A stretch of 64,000 nt of DNA from Escherichia phage EP335, in the sequence record MG748548; one strand, written 5' to 3'. The notes beneath the pieces were generated by a model, which saw only the letters and a list, made by a program, of their open reading frames with translations, was not told the DNA's origin and did not search any database. Positions 1,689-30,825 of this stretch are shown here, in pieces; the first letter of the stretch is position 1, and each line of letters begins with the position of its first letter. A program made the translations under genes and the position numbers.

Positions 1689-3230
1689 ATGTCATTAGAT
1701 AAAGAAATATATGAAGCTCTCACTGGAGATAAACTAACAGTAGAGGAAAAGAAGCGTCTGTTAGGAATATTAAAAGAGCGAGATACATGGAGAAAGTATA
1801 ATAAGATTCTAGCTTTCAAAGCATACGACTTTCAGAAGAAGTTTTATGAGGCAGGACTGAAGCATCGCTTTAGGTTCCTGTGTGCTGCTAACCGTGTTGG
1901 TAAATCTTACAGCGAGGCATACGAGTTTGCTTGTCATGTCACAGGTCGCTACCCAACTTGGTGGACTGGATATAAATTTAAAAGACCTATCCTTGCATGG
2001 GCAGTCGGGATTACAGGGGATTCCACAAGAAAGGTTTTGCAAAAGGAATTGTTTGGCACACCTATTGGAAAAGATACAGATCTTATTGGTACAGGTGTGA
2101 TTCCTCGTGATGCTATTGTCATAGACACAATAGAACGAGATGGTAACAAGCTTCAGATCGTACAAATCAAACATCAAAACGAAAGGGGAGAGTTTGACGG
2201 CCTGAGCACATTAGAATTCCGTTCAACCCAACAGGGTGAACATACATTGATGGGTGCTACAGTTGATTATATTTGGCTGGACGAAGAAGATCCTTATGAA
2301 AGTATGGCAATCTTCTCTCAGTGTGTAACACGTACACTCACAACTAAAGGTTTAGTAACGATTACAGCTACACCAGAGAACGGTTTAACAGAGCTGGTGG
2401 ATAAGTTTATGAAAGGTGAAGGTGATGCAGATACAGGTTCTCTGTATTTCCAGAATGCTTCTTGGTGGGATGCACATGTTGACTTAGGTGGTCACATCTC
2501 AGACAAGGATATAAAAGACATGACCGAAGGTATTCCTGCTTGGCAGCTAGAGATGCGCTCCAAAGGTATGCCTCTGTTGGGTTCAGGTTTGATTTATGAT
2601 GTATCTGATGACTCAGTTAAGTGTGAACCATTCGATATCCCTGATACATGGAAACGTGTGTGTGCGGTTGATATCGGTATTGATCACCCTACTGCTGCTG
2701 TTTGGTCGGCTTACGATGCTAACACTGATACTATTTACATCTATGACTGCTATAGAGAAGGTGGTTACACTCCAGCTTACCATGCTCCGGCTATTAATGG
2801 TCGAGGACAGTGGATTCCGGTGGTGTTACCTCACGATGCTGACAATCTTGAGAAAGGTAGTGGTTCTTCAGTGGCCCAATTCTATAGGAATGCAGGGGTT
2901 AACGTACAATCTGAGACCTTCTACAACAAGATTGGAATGGATGGTAAAAAGAACTTCTTTGTAGAGCCGGGAATTACAGATATTCGTGAACGTATGATGT
3001 CAGGTCGATTCAAGATCTTTAATACTGCTTCCTGTGCTAAACTCTTTGAAGAAAAAGCACGATACCACCGTAAGGTCGGTAGGATTGTTAAAGAACATGA
3101 CGACTTGATGGATGCGATGCGCTATTCTGCTTGCTCCGTAACACATAGAGGTCGTAGTAAACACGATGCTAGCTACGGAAGTTCGTCGCTTTATCAAGAA
3201 AATATTAACAGATGGAATTCGAGTTACTAA
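1689..3230 (+). CDS. terminase large subunit
   Basis: internal ATG at 1689 preceded by ggagga; Walker A-like AANRVGKS, Walker B-like IWLDEEDP, C-terminal RNase-H-like nuclease region (AVDIGIDHP). Confidence 0.8.
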   Translation: MSLDKEIYEALTGDKLTVEEKKRLLGILKERDTWRKYNKILAFKAYDFQKKFYEAGLKHRFRFLCAANRVGKSYSEAYEFACHVTGRYPTWWTGYKFKRPILAWAVGITGDSTRKVLQKELFGTPIGKDTDLIGTGVIPRDAIVIDTIERDGNKLQIVQIKHQNERGEFDGLSTLEFRSTQQGEHTLMGATVDYIWLDEEDPYESMAIFSQCVTRTLTTKGLVTITATPENGLTELVDKFMKGEGDADTGSLYFQNASWWDAHVDLGGHISDKDIKDMTEGIPAWQLEMRSKGMPLLGSGLIYDVSDDSVKCEPFDIPDTWKRVCAVDIGIDHPTAAVWSAYDANTDTIYIYDCYREGGYTPAYHAPAINGRGQWIPVVLPHDADNLEKGSGSSVAQFYRNAGVNVQSETFYNKIGMDGKKNFFVEPGITDIRERMMSGRFKIFNTASCAKLFEEKARYHRKVGRIVKEHDDLMDAMRYSACSVTHRGRSKHDASYGSSSLYQENINRWNSSY

Positions 3231-3341
3231 TTGTGCAGGGGCGCTAGATTCGTAAGTTAACTAGGCGTGTACAAATCGAAGGGGAGGCTAAGGTCTCCCT
3301 TTAGTAATTCCTTCCCAGCTATCAACCGAGGGAGAGATTAG

Positions 3342-5585
3342 ATGGCTAAGAAGAATTTTAGTGAAGATGTATTGGATGAACTGCGCGTTGACCTTCAACG
3401 TCGATTCAACTACGCTCAAGGCTACGTAGATATCGCTGTAAAAGGCTATGCTCGTGAGGCTTGGGAATATTTTTATGGGAACCTTCCTGCTCCAGTTACA
3501 GCTGGCAGTTCTAGTTGGGTCGATCGTACAGTATGGGAATCAGTAAACGGTACACTCCAAGATATCATCAACGTATTCTGTTCAGGTGATGAAGCAGTGA
3601 CATTTGTAGCGGACAACCAAGCAGATAGTGATGCAGCTGACGTAGCAACTAAGCTCGTTAACCAAATCCTGTTGCGTGATAATCCGGGATACAATGTTAT
3701 TTCCTCAGCGGCACAAGAGTGTCTTGTCACTCGTAACTCTTTTATCAAATACTATTGGGATGAACAAACCTCCACTCAGACAGAAGAGGCAGAGGGCGTA
3801 CCTCCAGAAGCACTTGCTGCATATGTGCAGGGATTAGAGGCTGGCGGTCTTGAAGAGTTAGAAGTCTTTACCACTGATAATGATGACGGTACAGTGGACG
3901 TCAAGGTTAACTACAAACAAACAGTAAAACGTGTGAAGGTTGAGTATGTTCCTTCCGAACAAATCTTTGTAGATGAACATGCAACCAGTTTTGCTGATGC
4001 ACAATATTTCTGTCATCGTGTACGTCGCTCTAAAGAAGATCTCGTAGCTATGGGTTTCCCTAAAGATGAGATTGAAGCTTTTAACGATTGGACTGATACG
4101 ATGGACACTACCCAATCAACCGTTGCTTGGTCACGTACCGACTGGCGTCAGGATATAGACTCAGATATCGGTGTAGACACTGATGATATCGCTTCTATGG
4201 TTTGGGTTTATGAACACTACATCCGTACTGGTGTACTGGATAAGAATAAAGAATCAAAACTCTATCAGGTTATCCAAGCAGGTGAGCATATTCTCAGTTG
4301 TGAAGAAGTAACCAGTATTCCGTTCGTAACTTTCTGCCCGTACCCAATTCCGGGTTCATTCTATGGTCAGTCTGTCTATGACATTACGAAAGATATTCAA
4401 GATTTACGTACCGCACTAGTTCGTGGTTATATTGATAACGTAAACAATGCTAACTATGGTCGTTATAAAGCGATTGTAGGGGCGTATGACCGTCGTTCTT
4501 TGCTAGACAACCGTCCGGGTGGCGTTGTTGAAATGGAGCGTCAGGATGCGATTGATTTGTTCCCATACCACAATCTACCTCAGGGTATCGAGGGTCTGTT
4601 GGGAATGTCTGAAGAATTGAAAGAAACTCGTACAGGTGTCACTAAGCTCGGAATGGGTATTAACCCTGATGTGTTTAAGAATGACAACGCCTATGCTACT
4701 GTAGGCTTGATGATGAATGCAGCTCAGAACCGTCTCCGTATGGTGTGTCGTAACATTGCACACAATGGCATGGTTGAGTTAATGCGTGGAATCTACAACC
4801 TTATCAGAGAAAATGGTGAAACTCCTTTACAGGTTCAAACACCTCGTGGAATGGTTCAGGTAGATCCGAAACAGTTACCACCTCGTCATAATTTACAAGT
4901 TGTTGTAGCTATCTCTCCTAATGAGAAAGCAGAACGTGCACAGAAACTGATTAGTCTGAAACAGCTGATTTCTGCTGACCGACAGTTAGCACCTCTCTTT
5001 ACTCTGGAGCAAGATCGTTACATGACTGCACAGATCTTTGAGTTGATGGGAATTAAGGATACTCATAAATACTTAATGCCTCTTGAACAGTATCAGCCAC
5101 CGCAGCCATCTCCAATGGAAATTCTCCAGCTGGAAATGACTAAAGCTCAGGTTGAGAACGTACAGGCTTCTTCTCAGAAGATGATTGCTGATGCATTCGA
5201 CCAGCGTGAACGTACTACATTCGAACAGCAGAAAGCTGCCGATGAGTTCAGTCTGAAGCAGGAAGAGTTGCAGTTCAAGCAAGAAAATGCAGCAGATGTA
5301 ATGACCTTAGAGAATCGTAAGGAAGACAATAGTGCTACTCTGGAACAAGCTAAACACAAACTGTCTCTTCTTCAGCAGCAGGTTCGTCAGTATGAATCCG
5401 TACTGAAAGAACTACAGATGGTTATGGACCATCAGGTTGACCAAGAGAAGATTGTTGCTCAAGCACAGGTTCAGGATAAGACTTTGGAACTCCAAAAGAA
5501 AGAGTCAAATGTAACTAAGAAAGACCAACAGAAGACTCTAAAAGATTCTAGGATTCCTAACAGACGTCTTGGTAGTAAAAAATAA
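3342..5585 (+). CDS. portal protein (putative)
   Basis: 747 aa ORF immediately after terminase; gggagag RBS; Q-rich coiled-coil C-terminus; synteny terminase-portal-scaffold-capsid. Confidence 0.6.
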   Translation: MAKKNFSEDVLDELRVDLQRRFNYAQGYVDIAVKGYAREAWEYFYGNLPAPVTAGSSSWVDRTVWESVNGTLQDIINVFCSGDEAVTFVADNQADSDAADVATKLVNQILLRDNPGYNVISSAAQECLVTRNSFIKYYWDEQTSTQTEEAEGVPPEALAAYVQGLEAGGLEELEVFTTDNDDGTVDVKVNYKQTVKRVKVEYVPSEQIFVDEHATSFADAQYFCHRVRRSKEDLVAMGFPKDEIEAFNDWTDTMDTTQSTVAWSRTDWRQDIDSDIGVDTDDIASMVWVYEHYIRTGVLDKNKESKLYQVIQAGEHILSCEEVTSIPFVTFCPYPIPGSFYGQSVYDITKDIQDLRTALVRGYIDNVNNANYGRYKAIVGAYDRRSLLDNRPGGVVEMERQDAIDLFPYHNLPQGIEGLLGMSEELKETRTGVTKLGMGINPDVFKNDNAYATVGLMMNAAQNRLRMVCRNIAHNGMVELMRGIYNLIRENGETPLQVQTPRGMVQVDPKQLPPRHNLQVVVAISPNEKAERAQKLISLKQLISADRQLAPLFTLEQDRYMTAQIFELMGIKDTHKYLMPLEQYQPPQPSPMEILQLEMTKAQVENVQASSQKMIADAFDQRERTTFEQQKAADEFSLKQEELQFKQENAADVMTLENRKEDNSATLEQAKHKLSLLQQQVRQYESVLKELQMVMDHQVDQEKIVAQAQVQDKTLELQKKESNVTKKDQQKTLKDSRIPNRRLGSKK

Positions 5586-5594
5586 GGACACTGA

Positions 5595-5831
5595 ATGAAT
5601 ACACAACATCAATTCAATAAAGAGCATGCCGCCAGTTTGGCGGCTCTCAATCTTACAGGCAGTCTTGACGCAGCATTAGAGGCATTGAAAGAGAAACTCA
5701 TGAAAGAGATCGTATCAACCGAGCCTCATGAGAACAAGAAACGCGAAGATTGTTATCAAAAGTATAAAATGGTGGGTAGCTTAAAAGAGGTCATAAAAGC
5801 TGCTATCAATAGTGCAGGAGATGTTTCATAA
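5595..5831 (+). CDS. hypothetical protein
   Basis: ORF track 78 aa between portal and scaffold. Confidence 0.4.
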   Translation: MNTQHQFNKEHAASLAALNLTGSLDAALEALKEKLMKEIVSTEPHENKKREDCYQKYKMVGSLKEVIKAAINSAGDVS

Positions 5832-6913
5832 TGCCACAAGATAATTATATTGACCCGAACGATTTTAAATCTTTCCTCCAACTGGATGACCTGAAAGGTT
5901 CCTTCAAAGAAGAACTTGGTCGATTAGAATCTGAACAAGAGCCAGAAGTGGACATTGACGAAGACTTCCCTGAATCTCAGGCTGATGACTTCGACATTGA
6001 CACCGACCTTCTCGGCAAAGGCGATACGCTAGCGTTCGAAGATGAAGATGGATGGGAAGATGAAGAAGGAACGGAAGACGAAGCAGATGAGACTGATGAT
6101 GTTGTCGAGGATGACGAATCAGATGAGTCCAGTGATGCTGAACACGAAGAAACAGCTGACGAGGACGTAGACTACGAAGACGGCGACGTCTATGATGTTG
6201 ACTACGAAACCGTTATCACTCTTCCGGACGGTCGTGAAATGACAATCGAAGAATTGTCTAACGGCTACTTAACTGGTTCAGCAATGACCGAACGAGAAGA
6301 AACTCTCCAACGTCATGTTGAAGCTTTTGAAGAACGTGTTACAGGTTTGACGGATGTATTAGATTTGGCGTCTCTGGAAGCAGACCGTGTGATTGAAGAT
6401 TACAACGGCTTTGATTGGGACAAGCTCGCACAAGAAGATCCTCAGGCTTATGTAGAAAACAAACGTTTCTTAGAAAAATATGTAGCTCGTCGTCAGCAGC
6501 TGGAAGCAGCTCAGGCTAAGGCTAAACAGGAAGCGCAAGCTAAAGAAGAAGCTGTATTCCGCTCTAAGAGTGCTGAATGTGTTGCTATTCTGAAGCGTGA
6601 GATTCCTAATTGGGATGAGAATCTGTATCAGGGACTGATGCAATATGCAATTGATCTCGGTGCTACAGAGGAAGAAGTATTGCGGGAGAATCGTCCGTCT
6701 ATCTTCTTGGCTTTACATAAAGCATACCAATTTGATAAAGGTAAGCAACAGGTAATGGCTAAGATTAAGCGTCCGGGTGCTCCACGAAAAGTCGTGAAGT
6801 CTGATGCTTCTAAAGCTCGTACTTCCGGTAAGCCAGACAACGCTAAGGTTGCCAAGGCATTTGCAGAGGGTCGTATTCGTCATGAAGATGCATTTAAGTA
6901 TCTCGTAGATTAA
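5831..6913 (+). CDS. scaffolding protein (putative)
   Basis: highly acidic D/E-rich, coiled-coil A/K/Q-rich region; position directly upstream of major capsid gene. Confidence 0.5.
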   Translation: MPQDNYIDPNDFKSFLQLDDLKGSFKEELGRLESEQEPEVDIDEDFPESQADDFDIDTDLLGKGDTLAFEDEDGWEDEEGTEDEADETDDVVEDDESDESSDAEHEETADEDVDYEDGDVYDVDYETVITLPDGREMTIEELSNGYLTGSAMTEREETLQRHVEAFEERVTGLTDVLDLASLEADRVIEDYNGFDWDKLAQEDPQAYVENKRFLEKYVARRQQLEAAQAKAKQEAQAKEEAVFRSKSAECVAILKREIPNWDENLYQGLMQYAIDLGATEEEVLRENRPSIFLALHKAYQFDKGKQQVMAKIKRPGAPRKVVKSDASKARTSGKPDNAKVAKAFAEGRIRHEDAFKYLVD

Positions 6914-6954: not shown

Positions 6955-8028
6955 ATGGCAAATCCAACTTTATTTGTATCTTACGACCAGAACGGTAAAA
7001 AACTTTCCTTCGCTAACTGGATTTCTGTTCTGTCCCCGCAAGACACTCCGTTTGTGTCTATGACTGGTAAAGAGTCTATTAATCAGACTATTTTCAGCTG
7101 GCAGACCGACGCACTGGCAGCAGTTGATGCATCTAACGCACACATCGAAGGCTCTCGTGCTGATGATGGCGAAATGCAGCCGACTGTAATTAAATCGAAC
7201 GTTACTCAGATCCTGCGTAAAGTTGTTCGTGTATCCGATACCGCTAACACCACCGCTAACTACGGTCGTGGTCGTGAACTGATGTATCAGCTGGAGAAGA
7301 AAGGTAAAGAGATCAAGCGTGACCTCGAAAAAATCCTTCTGTCCGGTCAGGCTCGTACCGACGTGCTGGCTGACCAGTACCTGACTAACTCTGCAACTGA
7401 TCCTGATCTGGTTGGTAAGAATGACACCAATGCAGCTCGTAAGACTGGTGCTTTCCAGTTCCTGTGTGCTCACGGTGGTCTGACTGGTGCTTCTGGTTCT
7501 CAGGTTGTTGATAAAACTAAGAACGGTCCTGCTGACCCGGATACTGGTGCAGTAACTGTTAAAGTTGCACAGAATGCTTCTAACCCGACCACTAACGTTG
7601 GTTTTGATGAAGCTGATATCTTTGATATGACTCTGCAACTGTACACTGCTGGTTCTGAAGCTGATATTATCATGATCAACCCTGCTCATGCTAAGATCTT
7701 TGCTGCTCTTCAGGAAAACTCTGTTGGTTCTCGTCAGCGTATCTTTGAGAACACCAAGCAGTTCATCTATGAAGTTAACAGCATTACTGACCCGCTGGGC
7801 CAGAGCTACAAAATCATCGTTAACCGTTGGATGCCTACTGATGCAGTATACTTCTTCCGTAGTGCTGACTGGACTCAGATGGTCCTGCGTGCTCCGAAGC
7901 GTACTGAACTGGCTAAAGATGGTTCTTACGAGAAGTGGATGATTGAAATGGAAGTTGGTCTGCGTCACCGCAACCCTTATGCTTCCGGCGTTCTGTTCAC
8001 TGCTGCGGGAAAGGTAGTGGCGGCGTAA
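6955..8028 (+). CDS. major capsid protein
   Basis: 357 aa; aggag RBS; position after scaffold; long spurious antisense ORF across it suggests strongly biased codon usage; slippery site at its 3' end. Confidence 0.7.
   Translation: MANPTLFVSYDQNGKKLSFANWISVLSPQDTPFVSMTGKESINQTIFSWQTDALAAVDASNAHIEGSRADDGEMQPTVIKSNVTQILRKVVRVSDTANTTANYGRGRELMYQLEKKGKEIKRDLEKILLSGQARTDVLADQYLTNSATDPDLVGKNDTNAARKTGAFQFLCAHGGLTGASGSQVVDKTKNGPADPDTGAVTVKVAQNASNPTTNVGFDEADIFDMTLQLYTAGSEADIIMINPAHAKIFAALQENSVGSRQRIFENTKQFIYEVNSITDPLGQSYKIIVNRWMPTDAVYFFRSADWTQMVLRAPKRTELAKDGSYEKWMIEMEVGLRHRNPYASGVLFTAAGKVVAA
8007..8013 (+). other. candidate -1 programmed ribosomal frameshift slippery heptamer G_GGA_AAG
   Basis: GGGAAAG in X_XXY_YYZ register within last codons of capsid gene (..A-G-K-V-V-A-A-stop); -1 frame is open from 7947 through 9131. 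Confidence 0.5.
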
Positions 8029-9131
8029 CAGTAGATACCGTAACTGTTAGTCCTTCGTCGGTTGCAAGCCTTCCGACGGGGGCTACTCAGCAGTTTACAG
8101 CTACAGCAGAAATGAGTGACAGCTCCACAAGCACAACCGGATTTAATTGGTCCGTTGAGGGCGGTGGGGCTATTTCTGTTTCTGGGCTATATACTGCACC
8201 GAGTGCGTCGCAAGAAACCCCAGCAACTATTACGGCTACTAAAGGTGGTAAGGCAGGTACTGCTACAGTTCAGTCTGTTTTTGAACCTGCTACTATTGAA
8301 GCCAAAGCCAACATCACTGGTAAAGTAGGTGGAAGCACTACAGCCTTTACTACAATGTTTACAGCAACTAATTCTTCGGCAGAAGATTATTCTTTTGTTG
8401 TATCTCCAACATCAGCAGGAACTGTCAGTGCCGCAGGAGTTTTAACTTTAAGTAATGATGCAACTGGCACAGTTACTGTTAAAGCAACTCATAAAACTCA
8501 GTCAGGTGTTGAAGCCACTGTAACCTTTACGGGTGTTGTTGCTAAAGCTGCTATTACTGGAAAAACAGTCACAGGTAAAGTTGGTGGTGATGTGATTCCT
8601 TTCACGGACATGTTCACTAGTAACAAACCAGCATCAGAATTCAACTACGTGTTGACTCCGACTGGTGATGTAGGTGAAATTGACACTACTACAGGTGCAC
8701 TGACTCTCTTAGATGACCCTACAGACGAACTTATTAGTGTTAAAGCTACTCATAAAACTCAAACTTCTGTAACAGCAACCACTACAATCACAGCTACTCC
8801 GAAACTTACGGGCCTTGTTGCTTCTACTGTTTCTAATACTGTGGTCGTAGGTGCTACAGATAACCCTCTTGCTACAGACTCTATCACAATCACTGACTCC
8901 GCTCAACCGGGTGTAGTTCGTTTTGATGGTGTACCTCAGGGTTCAGTAGTTGGTGCTCTATCTTATGACACAGAAGGTACTGATGTAGGTTTGATGGAAG
9001 TTGATTTAACAGGTCAGGTGTTGACAATCACTTTATCAGCTCCGATTACCAGTGAAGATACTAAAATCTCAATCAGAACTAACCCAGCCTCCACAATATT
9101 CCGTACTTATGTTGTCAAGTCTGGTGCATAA
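8013..9131 (+). CDS. Ig-like (Big_2) domain extension, probably expressed as capsid-Ig fusion by -1 frameshift; independent start at ATG 8112 not excluded
   Basis: frame open upstream of ATG 8112 and already encodes Big_2-like sequence VTVSPSSVASLPTGATQQFTATA before the ATG; no clear SD before 8112; T/S/V-rich Ig-like repeats. Confidence 0.55.
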   Translation, partial: GSGGVTVDTVTVSPSSVASLPTGATQQFTATAEMSDSSTSTTGFNWSVEGGGAISVSGLYTAPSASQETPATITATKGGKAGTATVQSVFEPATIEAKANITGKVGGSTTAFTTMFTATNSSAEDYSFVVSPTSAGTVSAAGVLTLSNDATGTVTVKATHKTQSGVEATVTFTGVVAKAAITGKTVTGKVGGDVIPFTDMFTSNKPASEFNYVLTPTGDVGEIDTTTGALTLLDDPTDELISVKATHKTQTSVTATTTITATPKLTGLVASTVSNTVVVGATDNPLATDSITITDSAQPGVVRFDGVPQGSVVGALSYDTEGTDVGLMEVDLTGQVLTITLSAPITSEDTKISIRTNPASTIFRTYVVKSGA

Positions 9132-9136
9132 ACCTA

Positions 9137-9165
9137 AGCTGCCTTCGGGCGGCTTTTCTTGTTTT
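9137..9165 (+). terminator. rho-independent terminator (UUCG tetraloop hairpin)
   Basis: agctgcc-ttcg-ggcggct followed by tttcttgtttt. Confidence 0.6.
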
Positions 9166-9229: not shown

Positions 9230-9976
9230 ATGGCGATGCCAGACGTTCAGTACCCAATTAATACCTACGGATGGCTTAAGAAGGCTGTGTCCCTCTGGGC
9301 TGACCGTGATGACCCTGAATTTGTTAATCAGATTCCGAACTTTATTAACTTTGCAGAAAAGGAAATCTATCGTAATTTACGTATTCCTCCTCTGGAAAAA
9401 GAAGTCTATTTAGATATTAAAGATGGTGTGGCTTTTATCCCACCAGATTACTTAGAAGCTCAGTGGATGATGAGATCTAAAGATGGTTTAATCTTCCGTG
9501 TAACCTCTCTTGAAGAAGTTGATTGGCTTAAGCGTAATAACTCAGTCAACCCCACTAATTGGAATCAAGGAGAAGTTGTCTTTGCTCGTTTGGGTAGTCG
9601 GTTTATCTTCTATCCTGCAATTGAAGCAGATACTCCAGTTTACCCTGATGATGGCAGCCCTGAGATTCCAGCAGAGAATGCGGTCATTCTTAGCTATTAT
9701 GCTGACCCACCAGAGTTCTGGGAAGATTCAGACACAAGCGCTATTCTTACTATAGCCCCAGAGCTTCTACTGTATTTTGCTTTACGTCATGCTTCCTTGT
9801 TTGTTCAGGATGACAATGCAGTTCAGAAGTGGTCTGCTTTAGGTAAAGCCATTCTTGATGAAGTTGTTGAGCAGAGTAAGAAAGCAGAATACTCAGGTTC
9901 ACCTTTAGTTATTCCTAACACGATTAGCCGTCTACATAGCTCTCGTGAAGTATATGGGATTCGTCGTTTTAGATAA
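9230..9976 (+). CDS. virion structural protein (putative head-tail/tail component)
   Basis: ORF track 248 aa; ggagg RBS; position between capsid and tail fibre genes. Confidence 0.45.
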   Translation: MAMPDVQYPINTYGWLKKAVSLWADRDDPEFVNQIPNFINFAEKEIYRNLRIPPLEKEVYLDIKDGVAFIPPDYLEAQWMMRSKDGLIFRVTSLEEVDWLKRNNSVNPTNWNQGEVVFARLGSRFIFYPAIEADTPVYPDDGSPEIPAENAVILSYYADPPEFWEDSDTSAILTIAPELLLYFALRHASLFVQDDNAVQKWSALGKAILDEVVEQSKKAEYSGSPLVIPNTISRLHSSREVYGIRRFR

Positions 9977-26360: not shown

Positions 26361-29300
26361 ATGGCTAACATTAAATCTTGGGAAGAAGCATCGAAAAGCC
26401 CCAAGTATATGAACGCAACTCCTGAGCAACAAGCTCAGTTGAGAGAGCAATACAAAGCGGCAGGTGGTACAATCCCTGAAGATAAGCCAGTACAACCACA
26501 ACAAGAAGAGCGTGGCTTAGTTGGTGAGTTCGCTCAGGGCGTATCTAATGCTATCGAATCTGGTGGAGCTAATATTGCAGCTAGTACCGCTCGTGGTTTA
26601 GGTGGTCTGGTTGAAATGGGTGAGAACGTTCTCGGTTCCCAAACAAGTTATGGTAAAAGAATTCAAGATAACGCAAAACAAGTATTAGAAAAGCGTATGG
26701 CTGGTATCGAGGATGGCTTTGGTAAGACTGCTGGGCAGTATGCTGGAGTGGCTGCTGATATTGGTTTGACGGTTGCTAACCCAGCTTTGGCTGCTGGTGT
26801 TATTGCGGGACGTGAAGCAGGTCGAGCTTATGCAGACCAGACCCCAGAAGAGGGAGAAGACAAGTCAGTGTTAGATGCTGCTCTTGTTGGTGGTGCTAAC
26901 TTTGCAGCTCAGAAGATTCTTCCGGGTTTTACAGGAACAGCTGAATCTACTTTAGGTCGTATTGGTCAGAGTGCTGCTTCTAACGCCGTGGCTGGCGCTA
27001 AGGGTGGTGCTCTCGTAGGTGCTGCTGAAGCTCAGAATAAGTATGGTGATGACACTACACTTGCCAATGTACTAGAAGGTGCAATTGATGAAGGTGTTGC
27101 TGGTGCTGCTTATGGTGGAGCTATCGGTGGTGTTCATGGTGCAATTAGTCGCCCTAGTCCTCAAGTGTTTGATAAGACTCCTGAGAATGTTAAGACTGAT
27201 ATCTCCGCTGAAGATGAAGCAATTCGTAGTGCGAAGAATGCTGATGAACTCCGTGAAGCTTACTCTCAAGCCGATACTGCTAACACAGCTTCCGCTCTTA
27301 ACCTGCTAGACCAGAACGATTTCCGTATTACAGATGCTGTGGCTATGGATTCTCCTGCTGCCCAACGTATCCTTAATACTGACCAGACTCGTGCTGAGAA
27401 AGCTGCTTCCTCTCTTACAGAGCGTTCTAATATTCCGGGTCTTAATCCTCTTGTTTCTCCAAGTAAGGTCAAGGGTAAAGCTTTTGCGGATAACGAACAT
27501 AACCAGAAGCAAGCCGTAGCAATGAAAGATGCAATGGCTGACTACACTAAAGACAACACCAAGGCTCTTAATGATGTTCTTGATAACCTAGACCGAGAGT
27601 TGAACGACCTTCGTGTTCGTGGTGACTTTACTGGTAGTGCTATTGACATTAAGAATCAGACTCGTAACGATCGTGATTTCATTGATGCTTACAAGAACTT
27701 CTATACTGAAGCAAACAGATTCAAAGCTCGTGATGGCGAAGACTTTAATAACTTTGTAGAGAAAGCTACTGAACTACAGAAACTTGCTGACAATGTTTCT
27801 CCAGAGATGAAGCAAGCTATTGGCGGTTTGAAGAAACTCAAAGGTATGCCTGAAGGTTTCAACCCTATCCAAGATGCCTTTACTCTGAACAACACAGCTA
27901 AACTAATGAGTAATCAAGACCGTGGTTGGACGACACTGACAGATGATGGTTTCCGTGAAGCCTCTTCTCCAAGCTTTGTTATGAACACCCTAGGTGCTGC
28001 TAAGTATGCTCTGAACCGCTTCTCTTCAGAGAGGGCTAGATCTCAACGTGCTCGACAGCAGGACTCAAACAGTGAAGCAATTCGCTCTTTGGCTCGTGGT
28101 GATTTAGAGGTTGCTCGTGCTCGAAGAGCAGCAGCAAAAGCACGCGAAGAAATGGAAGCCGAACCGGTTGTTGATGACGTCCAATTTAAGACGCAAGCTG
28201 ATGACCAAAATCAGGCTGGTTCTGAACCTTCTTCTCCAGCTACTGTGACGGAAGATTTCTCTCCTTCTCCAGCTCCTTTAACTGCTCGTGATTTGGTTGC
28301 TCAAAGACGTGCCATCCGACAGGCGGAACAACGCCGTGCAGAGGAAGAAGCGCAAGCTGCTCAGAATGCTCCAGTTGAACCAGAAGCTCCAGCAGAAACT
28401 TTACCTACGCGTAACCCTCTTGAGGAACGTAGAGTGCAAGAAGCTGAGATGGAACAACAGCGTGCAGCAGAAGAGGCTGCTAAAGCTCCTGAGACGCCCG
28501 TAGAAGAGTCTACAGCTAAAGCTGAGCCATTACCTGCTCGTGCTCCTAAAGCTCCTAAGGAAGCTGCTCCTGAGGTTAAACCGGCTACTGGTGTAGAACG
28601 TCTTGCTGCTATGTCAACAGCTGCTCGTCAGGCTACTAAAAACCGTGCTGAACGTTTTGCTCGTTCTCTGTATACTGCTGGTGCTAAAGCTAAAGCTACT
28701 GCGGAAAACTTCTTGGCTTACAAAGGGGACCCGAAAGAGTTAATGCGTCGTATCCGTCAGGAAGACCAAGCGAACAATGCTGCTCGTCATGAAGAGATGG
28801 CTCGCAACCAATTAACTTCTCAGCAAGGTATTGCAGCTGCTAAGTCTAACCGAGTTCGTTCTGCATTCTCCGATTGGGTTAAAGAACGTGGACTACCTTC
28901 TGAAATCGCCTCTAAAGCCCTGCGTGCTGAAGAACGTGGATTGGATGGTAACGTGTCAAGTCTAGACTCTCTGAAGCGTAGAGCTGAGCGTATGTATCAG
29001 AAAGAACGTGATGATGAGTTTGATAGAATGTATCGTGAAGCTCTGGAAGAAAACAAAGCTTTCGATAAGAACGATGCACCTAAGCTGAAAGACCAGAAGG
29101 CTGAGTTCCAGTCAGAGATTGATTCTCTGCTTGAGAGCGAACCTCTTCGTCCTGCTCAGAAAGATGCAATGCGTAAGATGATGAGTGATTTTGTTGATGG
29201 GAAGTTTAAAGCGGCTGAGAAAGCTGGAAGGGAAGAAGCTTTAGAGGTTGGTCAAATGAAGGATTTGTGGGATGGGTTTATTAATACCTACAATCGTGAA

Positions 29301-30782
29301 GTTGGCATGTTCAATAAAGCTAACAAGAACTCTCAGTATGAAGCAGCAGCTAAACATCTACAGGCTCGTGAAGAACGTCTTACCTCTTTACGTAACAGAG
29401 CAGAAGCTCGTGCTCAAGCGAAAGCTACAGCAGAAGCTGAACGTCAGTCACTCGAAGCGATTGCTGGTCAGAAGACTGAGATAGAGAAGATGTTTGATGA
29501 GTTACCTAAACCTGTCCGCGAGGCTCAGGAAAGTCGTACTCTGAAACAGCTTGCAGCTCACCATGATAAGAACTCCCCTGTTCCTCCAGAACGTTTCCGT
29601 AGTATTATCGAACGTATCCATAACGCAGAGTCAGACTACCTTGATCGTAAGCGTCGTCTCACTGATGCAGAGGAAGATGCTCGTGAAGCTAAGTGGAACA
29701 AGATGTATGAACAAGCAGAGGAGATGAACCGTAAGTTCGATATAGATGCTCGTGTATCCCGTGATAAGAGCCTCAAAGAAGCTCAGGAGCGACAGAATGA
29801 TCTCATGGCAGTACAACGCCAACGTGATGACATTCATAGCCGTCTGGTGCGTTCTATCGAAGATAAGGGCATCCCTAAAGCTGATGCTGAAGCATTTGCT
29901 GGTTCTTATATGGATAACCGTTATGCTCTTCTTGAAAAACCTATGACCCCTACCGAACACCAGAATGCTCGTGCACGTATTGAGTCCGATGTAGAGAAGT
30001 TTGCTAAGAAGTATGAAAGCTTGTCTCCTATTGAGAAAGACGTGGTTAAGATTACTGGTGATGTGGAAGGTAAACTGGATGGGTTGGATGCTGAGACTGT
30101 GAAGGCAGTTGAGGAAGCTAGGAAGGTTGACTCTGATATTAAGAAACTTCAGGACGAAGAGTTGGAAATGGAGAAAATCCGTTCAGCTTTACCTGATGAT
30201 GAAAAGTCTCAGGCAAATTCCGACATTCTGGAAAGCATCAAAAAGCAAGAAGATGAGTTTGCAGGGAAGGTTGAGAAGGCATTCTTGGAAGGCAAGGACT
30301 TGAAGGAACTGGCTAGTGTTGCAGAGGTTCTGGATAGGGTTCATGGTGCTGACAAGGCTGGGAACAACCGTAGATTTGTTCGTGCTCTACAGACTGCTGC
30401 TGACAACAAGAAGAAGTATGGGGATAATCCGGTAGCTTGGTTTAGTGCTGATGATTACTCTGCTATTGCTAAACTTGGTGCTGCATCAGCGGGCGGTAAC
30501 AAATCGAGAGCGTTGGAGAAGATCTTTGGTTCTACAGCAGATCAAGCTAAGGCTAAGCTTTTGGGGAGAGATGATGTAGCGAAGATGAGACGTGTGATTG
30601 AAGCGAATCCTGAAGTCAAGATTCCTTCTTACAAGACTACTACTCGTCAAGAGTATTTACAGTTCTTGGAGAAGTATAATGATGAGGGAGTGTTGAAAGT
30701 CAAACGTGGTTCTCTGTCTGACAAATTAGAAAGGAATAAGCGTCAAGCTAAACTCCGTGTTAGAGTTCGCTCGAAAGAGTAA
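26361..30782 (+). CDS. large virion protein (putative internal/DNA-ejection protein), 1473 aa
   Basis: aaggag RBS; long A/E/K/R-rich coiled-coil content; last gene of structural block. Confidence 0.5.
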   Translation: MANIKSWEEASKSPKYMNATPEQQAQLREQYKAAGGTIPEDKPVQPQQEERGLVGEFAQGVSNAIESGGANIAASTARGLGGLVEMGENVLGSQTSYGKRIQDNAKQVLEKRMAGIEDGFGKTAGQYAGVAADIGLTVANPALAAGVIAGREAGRAYADQTPEEGEDKSVLDAALVGGANFAAQKILPGFTGTAESTLGRIGQSAASNAVAGAKGGALVGAAEAQNKYGDDTTLANVLEGAIDEGVAGAAYGGAIGGVHGAISRPSPQVFDKTPENVKTDISAEDEAIRSAKNADELREAYSQADTANTASALNLLDQNDFRITDAVAMDSPAAQRILNTDQTRAEKAASSLTERSNIPGLNPLVSPSKVKGKAFADNEHNQKQAVAMKDAMADYTKDNTKALNDVLDNLDRELNDLRVRGDFTGSAIDIKNQTRNDRDFIDAYKNFYTEANRFKARDGEDFNNFVEKATELQKLADNVSPEMKQAIGGLKKLKGMPEGFNPIQDAFTLNNTAKLMSNQDRGWTTLTDDGFREASSPSFVMNTLGAAKYALNRFSSERARSQRARQQDSNSEAIRSLARGDLEVARARRAAAKAREEMEAEPVVDDVQFKTQADDQNQAGSEPSSPATVTEDFSPSPAPLTARDLVAQRRAIRQAEQRRAEEEAQAAQNAPVEPEAPAETLPTRNPLEERRVQEAEMEQQRAAEEAAKAPETPVEESTAKAEPLPARAPKAPKEAAPEVKPATGVERLAAMSTAARQATKNRAERFARSLYTAGAKAKATAENFLAYKGDPKELMRRIRQEDQANNAARHEEMARNQLTSQQGIAAAKSNRVRSAFSDWVKERGLPSEIASKALRAEERGLDGNVSSLDSLKRRAERMYQKERDDEFDRMYREALEENKAFDKNDAPKLKDQKAEFQSEIDSLLESEPLRPAQKDAMRKMMSDFVDGKFKAAEKAGREEALEVGQMKDLWDGFINTYNREVGMFNKANKNSQYEAAAKHLQAREERLTSLRNRAEARAQAKATAEAERQSLEAIAGQKTEIEKMFDELPKPVREAQESRTLKQLAAHHDKNSPVPPERFRSIIERIHNAESDYLDRKRRLTDAEEDAREAKWNKMYEQAEEMNRKFDIDARVSRDKSLKEAQERQNDLMAVQRQRDDIHSRLVRSIEDKGIPKADAEAFAGSYMDNRYALLEKPMTPTEHQNARARIESDVEKFAKKYESLSPIEKDVVKITGDVEGKLDGLDAETVKAVEEARKVDSDIKKLQDEELEMEKIRSALPDDEKSQANSDILESIKKQEDEFAGKVEKAFLEGKDLKELASVAEVLDRVHGADKAGNNRRFVRALQTAADNKKKYGDNPVAWFSADDYSAIAKLGAASAGGNKSRALEKIFGSTADQAKAKLLGRDDVAKMRRVIEANPEVKIPSYKTTTRQEYLQFLEKYNDEGVLKVKRGSLSDKLERNKRQAKLRVRVRSKE

Positions 30783-30790
30783 ACAAGAAA

Positions 30791-30825
30791 AGCCCCAACC
30801 GAAAGGAAGGGGCTTTATTTTTATC
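30791..30825. terminator. bidirectional rho-independent terminator at convergence of + and - transcription units
   Basis: agcccc...ggggct stem flanked by T-runs on both strands (tttatttttat on +, tttcttgttt on -). Confidence 0.6.

Follow-up and report, generated by a model that had tools for sequence, protein, structure and literature searches.

A programmed −1 frameshift very probably fuses the major capsid protein of Escherichia phage EP335 to an extension of Ig-like domains encoded in the overlapping frame. We analysed a stretch of 64,000 nucleotides of this phage (sequence record MG748548), referred to below as the window, and every in-silico test that was run sides with this reading, which we regard as supported. 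It had been put forward in a first-pass annotation, and it is borne out by the invariance of the slip site, the switch of the frame under selection, the position of the domain boundary and the poor quality of the ATG annotated as the start of the extension. A capsid-Ig frameshift has already been annotated and published in the group of phages to which EP335 belongs, and our result is in this sense a re-discovery.

The capsid gene and its overlapping frames

The window comes from a phiEco32-like prolate podophage infecting E. coli. It is of the Kuravirus type (phiEco32-like, Gordonclarkvirinae) and shows 96.5% identity to phage KarlSchell_Bas89 (Bas89 below). The capsid region contains the following features.

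6955..8028, + strand: major capsid protein gene, zero frame (357 aa, 39.1 kDa, HK97 fold)
7947..8028, + strand: overlap in which the zero and −1 frames are both open (27 codons; last −1 stop at 7944-7946)
8007..8013, + strand: G_GGA_AAG, a slippery heptamer of the form X_XXY_YYZ in phase with the zero frame, 19 nt upstream of the capsid TAA
8013..9131, + strand: extension that would be read in the −1 frame after slippage (372 codons plus stop, the stop at 9129-9131)
8112..8114, + strand: ATG at which gene callers begin a separate 'Ig domain containing protein' (Met36 of the structural model, Met387 of the fused product)
9136..9165, + strand: intrinsic-terminator-like hairpin and T-run, just 3' of the extension stop codon

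The capsid protein carries the full SU10_MCP domain, above the curated threshold (Pfam PF17236, residues 12-348, E 7e-76, 255.9 bits against a cut-off of 24.1), and matches both PHROG 1328, 'major head protein' (E 2.5e-117), and the major head protein of SU10 (PDB 7z45, E 5.4e-222). Its start codon is preceded by a Shine-Dalgarno sequence, AGGAG, with an anti-Shine-Dalgarno (anti-SD) duplex of -6.5 kcal/mol. The raw sequence at the 3' end of the gene reads ...GCT GCG GGA AAG GTA GTG GCG GCG TAA, as the first-pass annotation had quoted it from the GCG on, with the TAA at 8026-8028. Here lies the heptamer that had been called a canonical slippery site, and it does stand at the right position and in the right register, its zero-frame codons being GGA (8008-10) and AAG (8011-13), so that it has the form and phase on which tandem slippage depends. 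It is the sole in-frame X_XXY_YYZ within the capsid ORF. The ORFs of the window hold 48 in-frame heptamers of this form per 17,547 codon positions, and just 4 of the XXXAAAG kind; by chance one would expect about 0.07 canonical heptamers of any type, and about 0.006 of the XXXAAAG type, in the 27-codon overlap.

The −1 frame was likewise found to be open as proposed, running from 7947, immediately past the stop at 7944-7946, into the ORF at 8112..9131 and so into a real protein domain. Between 7947 and 8111 it contains no ATG, GTG or TTG ahead of the ATG at 8112. A search for a terminator or promoter between the capsid ORF and the Ig ORF found none, and the stretch from the capsid stop to the Ig ORF holds no hairpin and T-run comparable to that at 9136..9165; the two ORFs form one expression unit. 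The site equivalent to 9136..9165 is annotated as a terminator in phages Paul and SU10. The fused product would have 725 aa and a mass of 76.0 kDa; the capsid protein, at 357 aa and 39.1 kDa, is about 37 kDa smaller. The earlier estimate of about 720 aa and an increase of about 40 kDa was thus roughly right, if slightly off in both figures. The predicted junction reads ...FTAAGK/GSGGVTVDTVTVSP, a peptide from the junction region would be TAAGKGSGGVTVDTVTVSPSSVASL, and residues 354-386, which lie upstream of Met387, are GSGGVTVDTVTVSPSSVASLPTGATQQFTATAE.

Conservation of the slip site and switch of the selected frame

All 18 Gordonclarkvirinae loci compared have GGGAAAG, unchanged and in frame, its distance to the first base of the stop codon being 16-22 nt. 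Synonymous sites near it vary among these loci, but the heptamer does not; the slip site and the arrangement of frames are thus conserved beyond what the zero-frame protein needs. The same heptamer is found in Privateer and CsaP_009, 7 nt ahead of the start of the stop codon. Past the heptamer, the zero-frame tail differs from one relative to another (VVAA, VAAA, AGA, AVAA, VEAA or a tail beginning LDPQQ) and the −1 frame keeps the pattern GKG(S)GGVTVDxVTVSP. Judged from these alignments, selection acts on the zero frame up to the heptamer and on the −1 frame past it.

The frameshift has been described in several of these relatives. In the GenBank entry of phage Paul the capsid CDS (CPT_Paul_010) is joined; its note places a 'Frameshift at GGGAAAG' and adds 'Frameshift in PhiEco32 major capsid protein product as well (PMID: 18294652)'. 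The capsid CDS of YF01 is also joined in GenBank, and the accompanying paper describes a GGGAAAG frameshift and two capsid isoforms across the whole group (PMC9965538). For phiEco32 itself, the capsid frameshift and the virion proteomics are reported in citing papers and GenBank notes (PMC9965538, PMC7881722). Mass spectrometry of SU10 gave head-protein forms of 38.5 and 55.4 kDa (PMC4281155), and Privateer showed two bands in SDS-PAGE, with the long form detected by mass spectrometry (PMC7881722). Most database annotations, including that of the closest relative, Bas89, nevertheless give two separate genes.

The extension is an array of Ig-like domains

The extension matches PHROG 13745, 'Ig domain containing protein' (E 3.5e-67). 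From the single sequence AlphaFold2 reached a pLDDT of only 36.9; the model used here, built on an alignment of 37 sequences (pLDDT 90.4), predicts four tandem Ig-like domains. With this model Foldseek returned tandem Ig-like domain arrays, among them the LigA Big_2 tandem 8gyr (TM 0.62 on the target, 26% identity). The domain boundaries below follow the strands of the model.

8028..8276, + strand: Ig-like domain 1, Big_2-like (model residues ~8-90)
8286..8546, + strand: Ig-like domain 2, 'ITGKVGG...VKATHKTQ' repeat (model residues ~94-180)
8553..8804, + strand: Ig-like domain 3, second copy of the domain 2 repeat type (model residues ~183-266)
8808..9128, + strand: C-terminal beta-sandwich domain, 'PKLTGLV...TYVVKSGA' (model residues ~268-374)

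Domain 1 begins 7-8 residues after the slip. It is modelled as seven strands within residues 8-90 (pLDDT 93-96), a predicted Ig-like beta-sandwich of the kind that characterises Big_2, and its strands at residues 9-15, 27-29 and 31-36 all lie at or upstream of Met36. The Pfam Big_2 profile (PF02368) aligns to fused residues 360-438 over positions 2-76 of 79, starting seven residues past the slip, with 19.4 bits, which is below the cut-off of 22.8; the orthologous domain of Paul scores 23.4 bits against the same cut-off. The model strands agree with the claim that Big_2-like sequence is encoded before the ATG at 8112, and the sub-threshold profile match also starts upstream of it.

Separate parts of the extension match one and the same stretch of a relative's extension in blastp, and the repeats are thus paralogous. 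In the metagenomic sequence P0038 a capsid paralog carries, in frame, the repeat type of domain 2 (66% identity), and the C-terminal beta-sandwich domain is common to the relatives with long extensions and to P0038. A sequence search of the extension against the PDB gave marginal matches, among them a weak one (E 0.088) to the T5 tail tube protein (5ngj, C-terminal region), which falls on domain 2 and not on domain 1.

Among the relatives the length of the extension changes in steps of whole domains (180, 273, 372-374, 457-461 and 545-547 aa), corresponding to two to six Ig-like domains. There are two in phiEco32, NJ01 and KBNP1711 (about 180 codons), three in TH42, four in EP335, five in Bas89, Bas86 and Bas87, and six in Paul and YF01 (892-894 aa fused). 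The extension of EP335 is one repeat of about 87 aa shorter than that of Bas89.

One unit or two genes

The arrangement could also be read as two separate genes, the second encoding a 339-aa Ig-like decoration protein that starts at the ATG at 8112 and binds the capsid non-covalently, with the heptamer irrelevant; we hold this to be very unlikely. Gene callers have annotated it so in Bas89, Bas86, SU10, SU7 and others, a 339-aa call of the same length is found in a public assembly (P0002, 99% identity), and the authors of the SU10 structure view gp10 as a possible separate minor capsid protein (PMC9509320). Against this, the ATG is a poor start. As had been noted, it has no clear Shine-Dalgarno sequence: its best anti-SD duplex is at +0.7 kcal/mol, weaker than about 90% of positions across 7000-9099 and the second-weakest among the 19 starts checked, most of the + strand gene starts in that set lying between -6 and -12.6 kcal/mol. 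The codon itself is replaced in 10 of 17 relatives, by AAG (the phiEco32, KBNP1711, SU7, IME267, SU10 and Bas94 type) or by CTA (TH42, Bas87 and EK010), and the starts annotated in relatives fall on scattered, differing codons. Initiation there would remove the first strands of Ig domain 1, and the ORF taken from this ATG no longer gives the Big_2 match. The 33 codons upstream of the ATG are conserved as protein in the −1 frame. In L009-L011 the homologous extension has no start codon in at least its first ~120 codons, and in LAh_6 and LAh_8 its sole ATG is internal, about halfway through a single Ig domain. The Ig ORF of EP335 thus does not show the conserved start, ribosome-binding site and complete first domain of an independent head-decoration gene. 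It contains no usable independent start, and the ATG at 8112 is probably not functional as one.

Less probable still is that the extension is a decaying remnant, in which the frameshift signal persists but the −1 product is no longer usefully made or incorporated. This has been argued for SU10, whose deposited sequence carries a 1-nt insertion that shuts the −1 frame after 33 codons and whose cryo-EM reconstruction has no density for the extension or a minor capsid protein (PMC9509320); the EP335 window, too, is without a canonical stimulator (see below). The −1 frame of EP335, however, is intact over 372 codons and encodes four confidently modelled Ig-like domains, and the conservation of the extension as protein, together with the change of domain number in whole-domain steps, points to continuing selection and not to decay. 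That the long form stems from RNA polymerase slipping during transcription, or from an indel introduced into the G3A3 run in sequencing or assembly, we consider the least credible of all. Such events can in principle occur at homopolymer runs, and this is all that speaks for them; the runs here are just three G and three A, and known bacterial transcriptional slippage sites need roughly 8 or more A or T. An assembly error is ruled out, since more than 18 genomes sequenced independently show the same two-frame arrangement.

A conserved hairpin far from the slip site

A stimulatory structure or Shine-Dalgarno-like element is common at bacterial frameshift sites, although it is not universal. EP335 has neither a structure 5-9 nt downstream of the heptamer, as 8014-8063 folds no better than shuffled sequences (z -0.07), nor, as far as could be seen by eye, a Shine-Dalgarno-like or GGAGG-like element in the 25 nt before it, so that the efficiency of slippage may be low. 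Further downstream there is a well-defined element.

8048..8085 (extendable to 8042-8095), + strand: conserved GC-rich hairpin inside the extension coding sequence

It pairs 8048-8054 with 8079-8085 and 8057-8061 with 8073-8077 around a loop at 8062-8072. The segment 8040-8095 folds at -24.3 kcal/mol (z -4.49), and none of 200 shuffles was as stable. Across 15 distinct relatives 98.9% of the cells are paired, against just 28-51% in slid controls; the pair 8060-8074 is U-A in 6, G-C in 5 and A-U in 4, and broken in none. The covariation score was matched by 0 of 500 shuffles, and in the 3' arm the covariation comes at the cost of amino-acid changes (P, L, Q, E). The first-pass annotation had recorded a GC-rich stem at 8051-8080. 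The stem exists, but its coordinates were 1-2 nt off (ccttcgtcgg is at 8052-8061 and ccgacggggg at 8073-8082), and the conserved hairpin is larger. The accompanying remark that it lies too far from the slip site for a typical stimulator was accurate, since the hairpin starts 34 nt past the heptamer (28 nt in the extended form) and is thus no canonical stimulator.

A conserved hairpin at such an unusual distance from a slip site is of some interest in itself. One might entertain the idea that it is a functional RNA element acting at a non-canonical distance, though we think this rather unlikely. It may pause a ribosome that has already shifted, so that the follower queues roughly one ribosome-length upstream, on the heptamer, which would amount to collision-stimulated frameshifting; or its role may lie in adjusting how readily ribosomes terminate at the end of the capsid gene, or in the stability of the mRNA. 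Any such role, if true, would be a new kind of modulator of bacterial −1 frameshifting.

Two other candidate stimulators were rejected. A three-way fold of 8014-8095 (z -1.69) has an outer stem that is not conserved, owing to a codon indel. The stem-loop proposed in the SU10 paper (CTGCTGC-GGGAAAG-GCGGCGG) has a 3' arm that is not conserved either (GCGGGAG in KBNP1711), and it cannot form with a ribosome on the heptamer, because the slip site makes up its loop and that ribosome would cover its 5' arm. Scanning the complete window for Rfam families and tRNAs gave no matches.

Proposed mechanism

For EP335 we infer the slippage, its efficiency, the incorporation of the long form into virions and the function of the Ig arm as follows. 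Most ribosomes would by default terminate at the TAA at 8026-8028 and yield the 39-kDa HK97-fold capsid protein. A minority would slip back one base on G_GGA_AAG (8007-8013), as the P-site tRNA-Gly re-pairs from GGA to GGG and the A-site tRNA-Lys from AAG to AAA, and would read 372 further codons in the −1 frame, to 9131. The resulting 76-kDa capsid protein would end in a short linker of Gly and Ser followed by four Ig-like beta-sandwich domains in tandem. It would co-assemble as a minor subunit, so that a few capsomers show an Ig-like arm on the surface of the head. By analogy with other phage Ig-like decorations, this arm is probably weakly adhesive to carbohydrate or cell surfaces.

Comparison with known systems

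The fusion of capsid proteins to Ig-like domains by −1 frameshifting is an established theme in tailed phages, and specifically in the group of EP335, so that the present case adds little new biology. Its value is rather one of annotation: in Bas89 and the majority of deposited Kuravirus genomes the unit still appears as two entries, a 'major head protein' and an 'Ig domain containing protein' that lacks its N-terminal part, and the correct annotation would be a joined CDS at GGGAAAG.

The closest systems are those of phiEco32, SU10, Paul and YF01 (Kuravirus and Suseptimavirus), whose capsid gene is orthologous (84-97% nucleotide identity) and has GGGAAAG in the identical position, followed by the GKG(S)GGVTVDxVTVSP junction, the first Big_2-like domain and the terminator past the extension; the sole difference is the length of the extension. 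Proteus phage Privateer (Grimontviridae) shares with EP335 a homologous capsid protein, GGGAAAG and an Ig-like extension in the −1 frame, but its heptamer lies 7 nt and not 19 nt before the start of the stop codon, and its 171-aa extension, made of I-set and Big_2, is not orthologous to the EP335 domains.

The G/G-T site of lambda has a heptamer, G_GGA_AAG, identical to that of EP335, which works at a few per cent without a downstream element; no downstream stimulator is known to be required there. Such a rate would fit a minor capsid species; the YF01 paper cites about 3.5% for lambda (PMC9965538). Unlike the EP335 protein, the lambda product is a tail assembly chaperone and its long form is not a virion component.

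A further parallel is gene 10A/10B of T7 and T3, where ribosomes shifting to the −1 frame close to the 3' end of the major capsid gene produce a minor head subunit with a C-terminal extension. In T7 the slip sequence is G_GUU_UUC, distal 3' sequences are needed and the extension is of about 50 aa. The capsid proteins of T7 and T3 and of EP335 belong to sequence families that are unrelated at this level, and the EP335 extension has 372 aa and four Ig-like domains. The analogy, also drawn in the first-pass annotation, has been made by the authors of the Privateer and YF01 papers (PMC7881722, PMC9965538).

Salmonella phage 7-11 and Cronobacter phage A24, finally, resemble EP335 in having an Ig-extended second version of the capsid protein beside the plain one. 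The second capsid gene of 7-11 encodes 585 aa with SU10_MCP and Big_2 in frame, and the metagenomic P0038 (501 aa) is a capsid paralog with the ITGKVGG repeat and the C-terminal domain in frame. In contrast to EP335, 7-11 and A24 have a duplicated gene, one copy of which is fused in frame to the Ig-like part and separated from the other by a terminator, with no slip site and no overlapping frames. Duplication of the capsid gene in related phages thus reaches the same end as the proposed frameshift in EP335.

Identity of the capsid region

Region 6900-9200 matches 124 phage records, nearly all of them phiEco32-like coliphages (Kuravirus / Gordonclarkvirinae), and shares 96.5% identity with Escherichia phage KarlSchell_Bas89, which is also the top match for another 24 kb of window sequence. 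The gene order is that of the phiEco32-like coliphages.

Genes of the capsid region
3342-5585, portal
5831-6913, scaffold
6955-8028, capsid (SU10_MCP, PHROG 1328, 7z45)
8112-9131, Ig ORF, as gene callers start it
9230-9976, adaptor

The capsid protein scores 255.9 bits with Pfam SU10_MCP, matches PHROG 1328 and finds the SU10 major head protein structure 7z45 at E 5.4e-222. On the minus strand, a 332-aa ORF (6970-7968) covers nearly all of the capsid gene in antisense; a shadow ORF of this highly expressed, codon-biased gene is the most likely reading. An ARAGORN scan of window positions 1-64000 gave neither tRNA nor tmRNA genes, and an Rfam scan gave no family at or above its gathering score.

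A slippery heptamer at the end of the capsid gene

The capsid ORF ends in GCT GCG GGA AAG GTA GTG GCG GCG TAA, and its G_GGA_AAG (8007-8013) is, as the first-pass annotation had proposed, a canonical slippery heptamer in proper X_XXY_YYZ register, the only one in frame in the gene. The -1 frame is indeed open from 7947 (last stop, 7944-7946) into the Ig ORF and on to 9131, with no ATG, GTG or TTG before the ATG at 8112. The computed frame-shifted product stands close to the roughly 720 aa first estimated, its exact length being 725 aa (76.0 kDa; junction ...FTAAGK/GSGGVTVDTVTVSP), the unshifted capsid protein having 357 aa (39.1 kDa). Across the window ORFs (17,547 codon positions) we counted 48 in-frame canonical heptamers, just 4 of the form XXXAAAG, a frequency that puts the chance expectation for the 27-codon overlap at about 0.006.

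Capsid loci were gathered without reference to the slip site, by (i) a protein-based IMG/VR scan, (ii) an EMEVGLRHRNP codon scan and (iii) annotated phage records over the whole similarity range. In all 18 Gordonclarkvirinae loci, 16-22 nt separate GGGAAAG from the capsid stop codon. The codons GCG GGA AAG are unchanging, although the third-codon positions just 5' of the heptamer differ (TCC/TCT, GGC/GGT/GGA, GTT/GTA, ACT/ACC). Past the heptamer the zero-frame tails are VVAA, VAAA, AGA, AVAA, VAA, VEAA, VEA, VVA, AAA or LDPQQ, and GKG(S)GGVTVDxVTVSP is encoded in the -1 frame of all the loci. With the zero-frame tail unconstrained and the -1 frame kept, selection therefore switches frame at the heptamer.

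Separate initiation at ATG 8112 fares poorly by comparison. The lack of a clear Shine-Dalgarno sequence there was borne out: pairing with the anti-Shine-Dalgarno is +0.7 kcal/mol, and about 90% of positions between 7000 and 9099 pair more strongly; most of the + strand gene starts checked have -6 to -12.6 kcal/mol. The ATG (AEMSD) is replaced by AAG (AEKSD) in phages of the phiEco32, KBNP1711, SU7, IME267, SU10 and Bas94 type, and CTA stands at its position in TH42, Bas87 and EK010; since the codon is not kept among relatives, "Ig protein" starts are annotated at differing places. Heptamer conservation, frame switch and ATG loss thus support a programmed -1 frameshift fusing the capsid protein to the Ig-like extension, a reading of which we are highly confident.

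In the SU10 locus (L028 1658-1760, NC_027395) a single extra base (GACACTGTCTACTG vs GACAGTGT-GACTG) brings the -1 frame to a stop 33 codons from its opening, about 12 codons past the heptamer; it is the only such 1-nt insertion among the Gordonclarkvirinae loci compared. Either a sequencing error or a genuine loss may lie behind it, and it is not easily reconciled with the "gp9+10" form of 55.4 kDa that mass spectrometry is reported to have shown for SU10.

A conserved hairpin downstream of the slip site

There is no unusual structure in the 50 nt directly 3' of the heptamer (z -0.07), and no Shine-Dalgarno-like element was seen by eye in the 25 nt upstream of it. The GC-rich stem noticed in the first-pass annotation does exist, with its arms at 8052-8061 and 8073-8082, 1-2 nt from where they had been placed. 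Region 8040-8095 folds at -24.3 kcal/mol (z -4.49; 0 of 200 shuffles as good), and this hairpin also emerges from a consensus fold of 16 relatives. Over 12 pairs and 15 distinct sequences, 98.9% of cells are paired, versus 28-51% with one arm slid; pair 8060-8074 is U-A in 6, G-C in 5 and A-U in 4, unbroken in all. The covariation score was reached by 0 of 500 shuffles, and reflects few independent events among related sequences. Pair-changing substitutions are synonymous in the 5' arm (TCG/TCA/TCT) and alter the amino acid in the 3' arm (P, L, Q, E); that the latter cost amino acids suggests that the RNA pairing itself is under selection. The hairpin starts 34 nt past the heptamer (28 nt in its extended form) and is therefore too far to act on the ribosome at the slip site.

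A terminator-like hairpin with a T-run (9136-9165) follows the stop of the extension; nothing similar was found between the capsid stop and the Ig ORF. Elsewhere, a 36-nt terminator-like hairpin (30788-30823, aaaagccccaaccgaaaggaaggggctttatttt) lies just 3' of ORF 26361..30782, between converging gene blocks. It has matches of at least 99% in 144 phage records; among the matches listed, identity is mostly 100% and all correspond to this stretch in otherwise unrelated T4-like phages (RB16, Lw1, many Klebsiella, Enterobacter and Cronobacter myophages). Either horizontal transfer or convergence towards an ideal terminator could account for its spread.

The Ig-like extension

Positions 2-76 of the 79-position Pfam Big_2 profile align with residues 360-438 of the fused protein at 19.4 bits, below the cut-off of 22.8; the Paul ortholog scores 23.4 bits. 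As had been claimed, Big_2-like sequence precedes the annotated ATG, and the match is gone if the ORF is scanned from there. With 37 sequences aligned from a single homolog search, AlphaFold2 gave the extension a pLDDT of 90.4 (single-sequence prediction, 36.9), with four tandem beta-sandwich domains at residues ~8-90, 94-180, 183-266 and 268-374, residue 1 being at nt 8007. In this model Met36 (ATG 8112) ends strand 31-36, so that an ATG-started protein would lack domain 1 strands 9-15 and 27-36. Foldseek matches are arrays of Ig-like domains, including the LigA Big_2 tandem 8gyr (TM 0.62 on target, 26% identity) and SU10 Ig-like nozzle domains.

Extension lengths in relatives move in whole-domain steps (180, 273, 372-374, 457-461 and 545-547 residues), with repeats of ~87-90 aa; close relatives have between two and six domains. 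Compared with that of its 96.5%-identical relative Bas89, the window extension is shorter by exactly one repeat. This whole-repeat gain and loss, seen in 8286-8804 of the window and in the orthologous stretches of L001-L003 and L034-L038, suggests frequent recombination between repeats.

More distant relatives

Privateer and CsaP_009 have GGGAAAG 7 nt ahead of the stop codon start, then an I-set plus Big_2 extension. In LAh_6, LAh_8, L012 and the three metagenomic contigs L009-L011, the capsid gene ends ...CTG AAG GTA AAG xxx TAA.

Loci with an Ig-like extension in the -1 frame
L031 (Aeromonas phage LAh_6), 2620-2910
L012
L009-L011, 4900-5430

The extension of L009-L011 lacks a start codon for at least ~120 codons from its beginning. 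The non-canonical G_GTA_AAG is the likely slip site, no other being plausible, and the GC hairpin 6 nt downstream does not differ significantly from shuffles. For LAh_6 and LAh_8, the sole ATG falls about halfway through the single Ig domain; in LAh_6 it is the annotated start of a "putative tail protein", which appears to be the C-terminal part of the extension. The arrangement in LAh_6, L012 and L009-L011 is probably an unannotated frameshift.

In 7-11, A24, L013, L018 and L042 the capsid gene lacks a slip site and a terminator follows it; beyond the terminator, 7-11, A24, L013 and L042 have a second capsid paralog, L018 stopping short of that position. Paralog extensions were assessed in L030, L033 and L042.

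Second capsid paralogs
7-11 (Salmonella phage, L030), 2725-4482, 585 aa, SU10_MCP plus Big_2, in-frame Ig-like domains
A24 (Cronobacter phage, L033), 2731-3816, 361 aa, in-frame Ig-like domains
L042, 996-3506, P0038, 501 aa, in-frame Ig-like domains
L013, 5029-

On these gene arrangements, duplication would reach the same end as frameshifting, a minor Ig-decorated capsid subunit. P0038 has the ITGKVGG...VKATHK repeat and C-terminal domain in common with the window (66% identity); being an independent in-frame fusion, it shows that the window's domain types work as C-terminal appendages of the capsid fold.

Annotation and comparison with known systems

Most deposited genomes of the group have a two-gene annotation (L002 (Bas89), L034 (Bas86), L036-L041 and others); the start given to the "Ig domain containing protein" varies among ATG, GTG and TTG codons that lie within Ig domain 1 or shortly 5' of it. 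Among the records examined, only Paul, YF01 and Privateer have a joined CDS: that of Paul (GenBank MN045231) notes the GGGAAAG frameshift, also for the PhiEco32 major capsid protein (PMID: 18294652), and YF01 is OQ025076. The capsid frameshift is already published; the remaining value lies in correcting split annotations (Bas89, many others) and in the conserved hairpin.

The lambda G/GT heptamer is the same as the GGGAAAG found here. Slippage at the lambda site is cited as ~3.5% in the YF01 paper (PMC9965538), which describes two capsid isoforms across the group and the Ig-like character and size variation of the extension, with SU10 as exception, and whose authors pointed out the SU10 insertion, in agreement with the sequence here. 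The SU10 paper (PMC4281155) named GGGAAAG slippage and, from mass spectrometry, reported the head protein in forms of 38.5 and 55.4 kDa. For Privateer (PMC7881722), two bands and mass-spectrometric detection of the frameshifted product were reported, with the statement that phiEco32 and SU10 also showed such a product.
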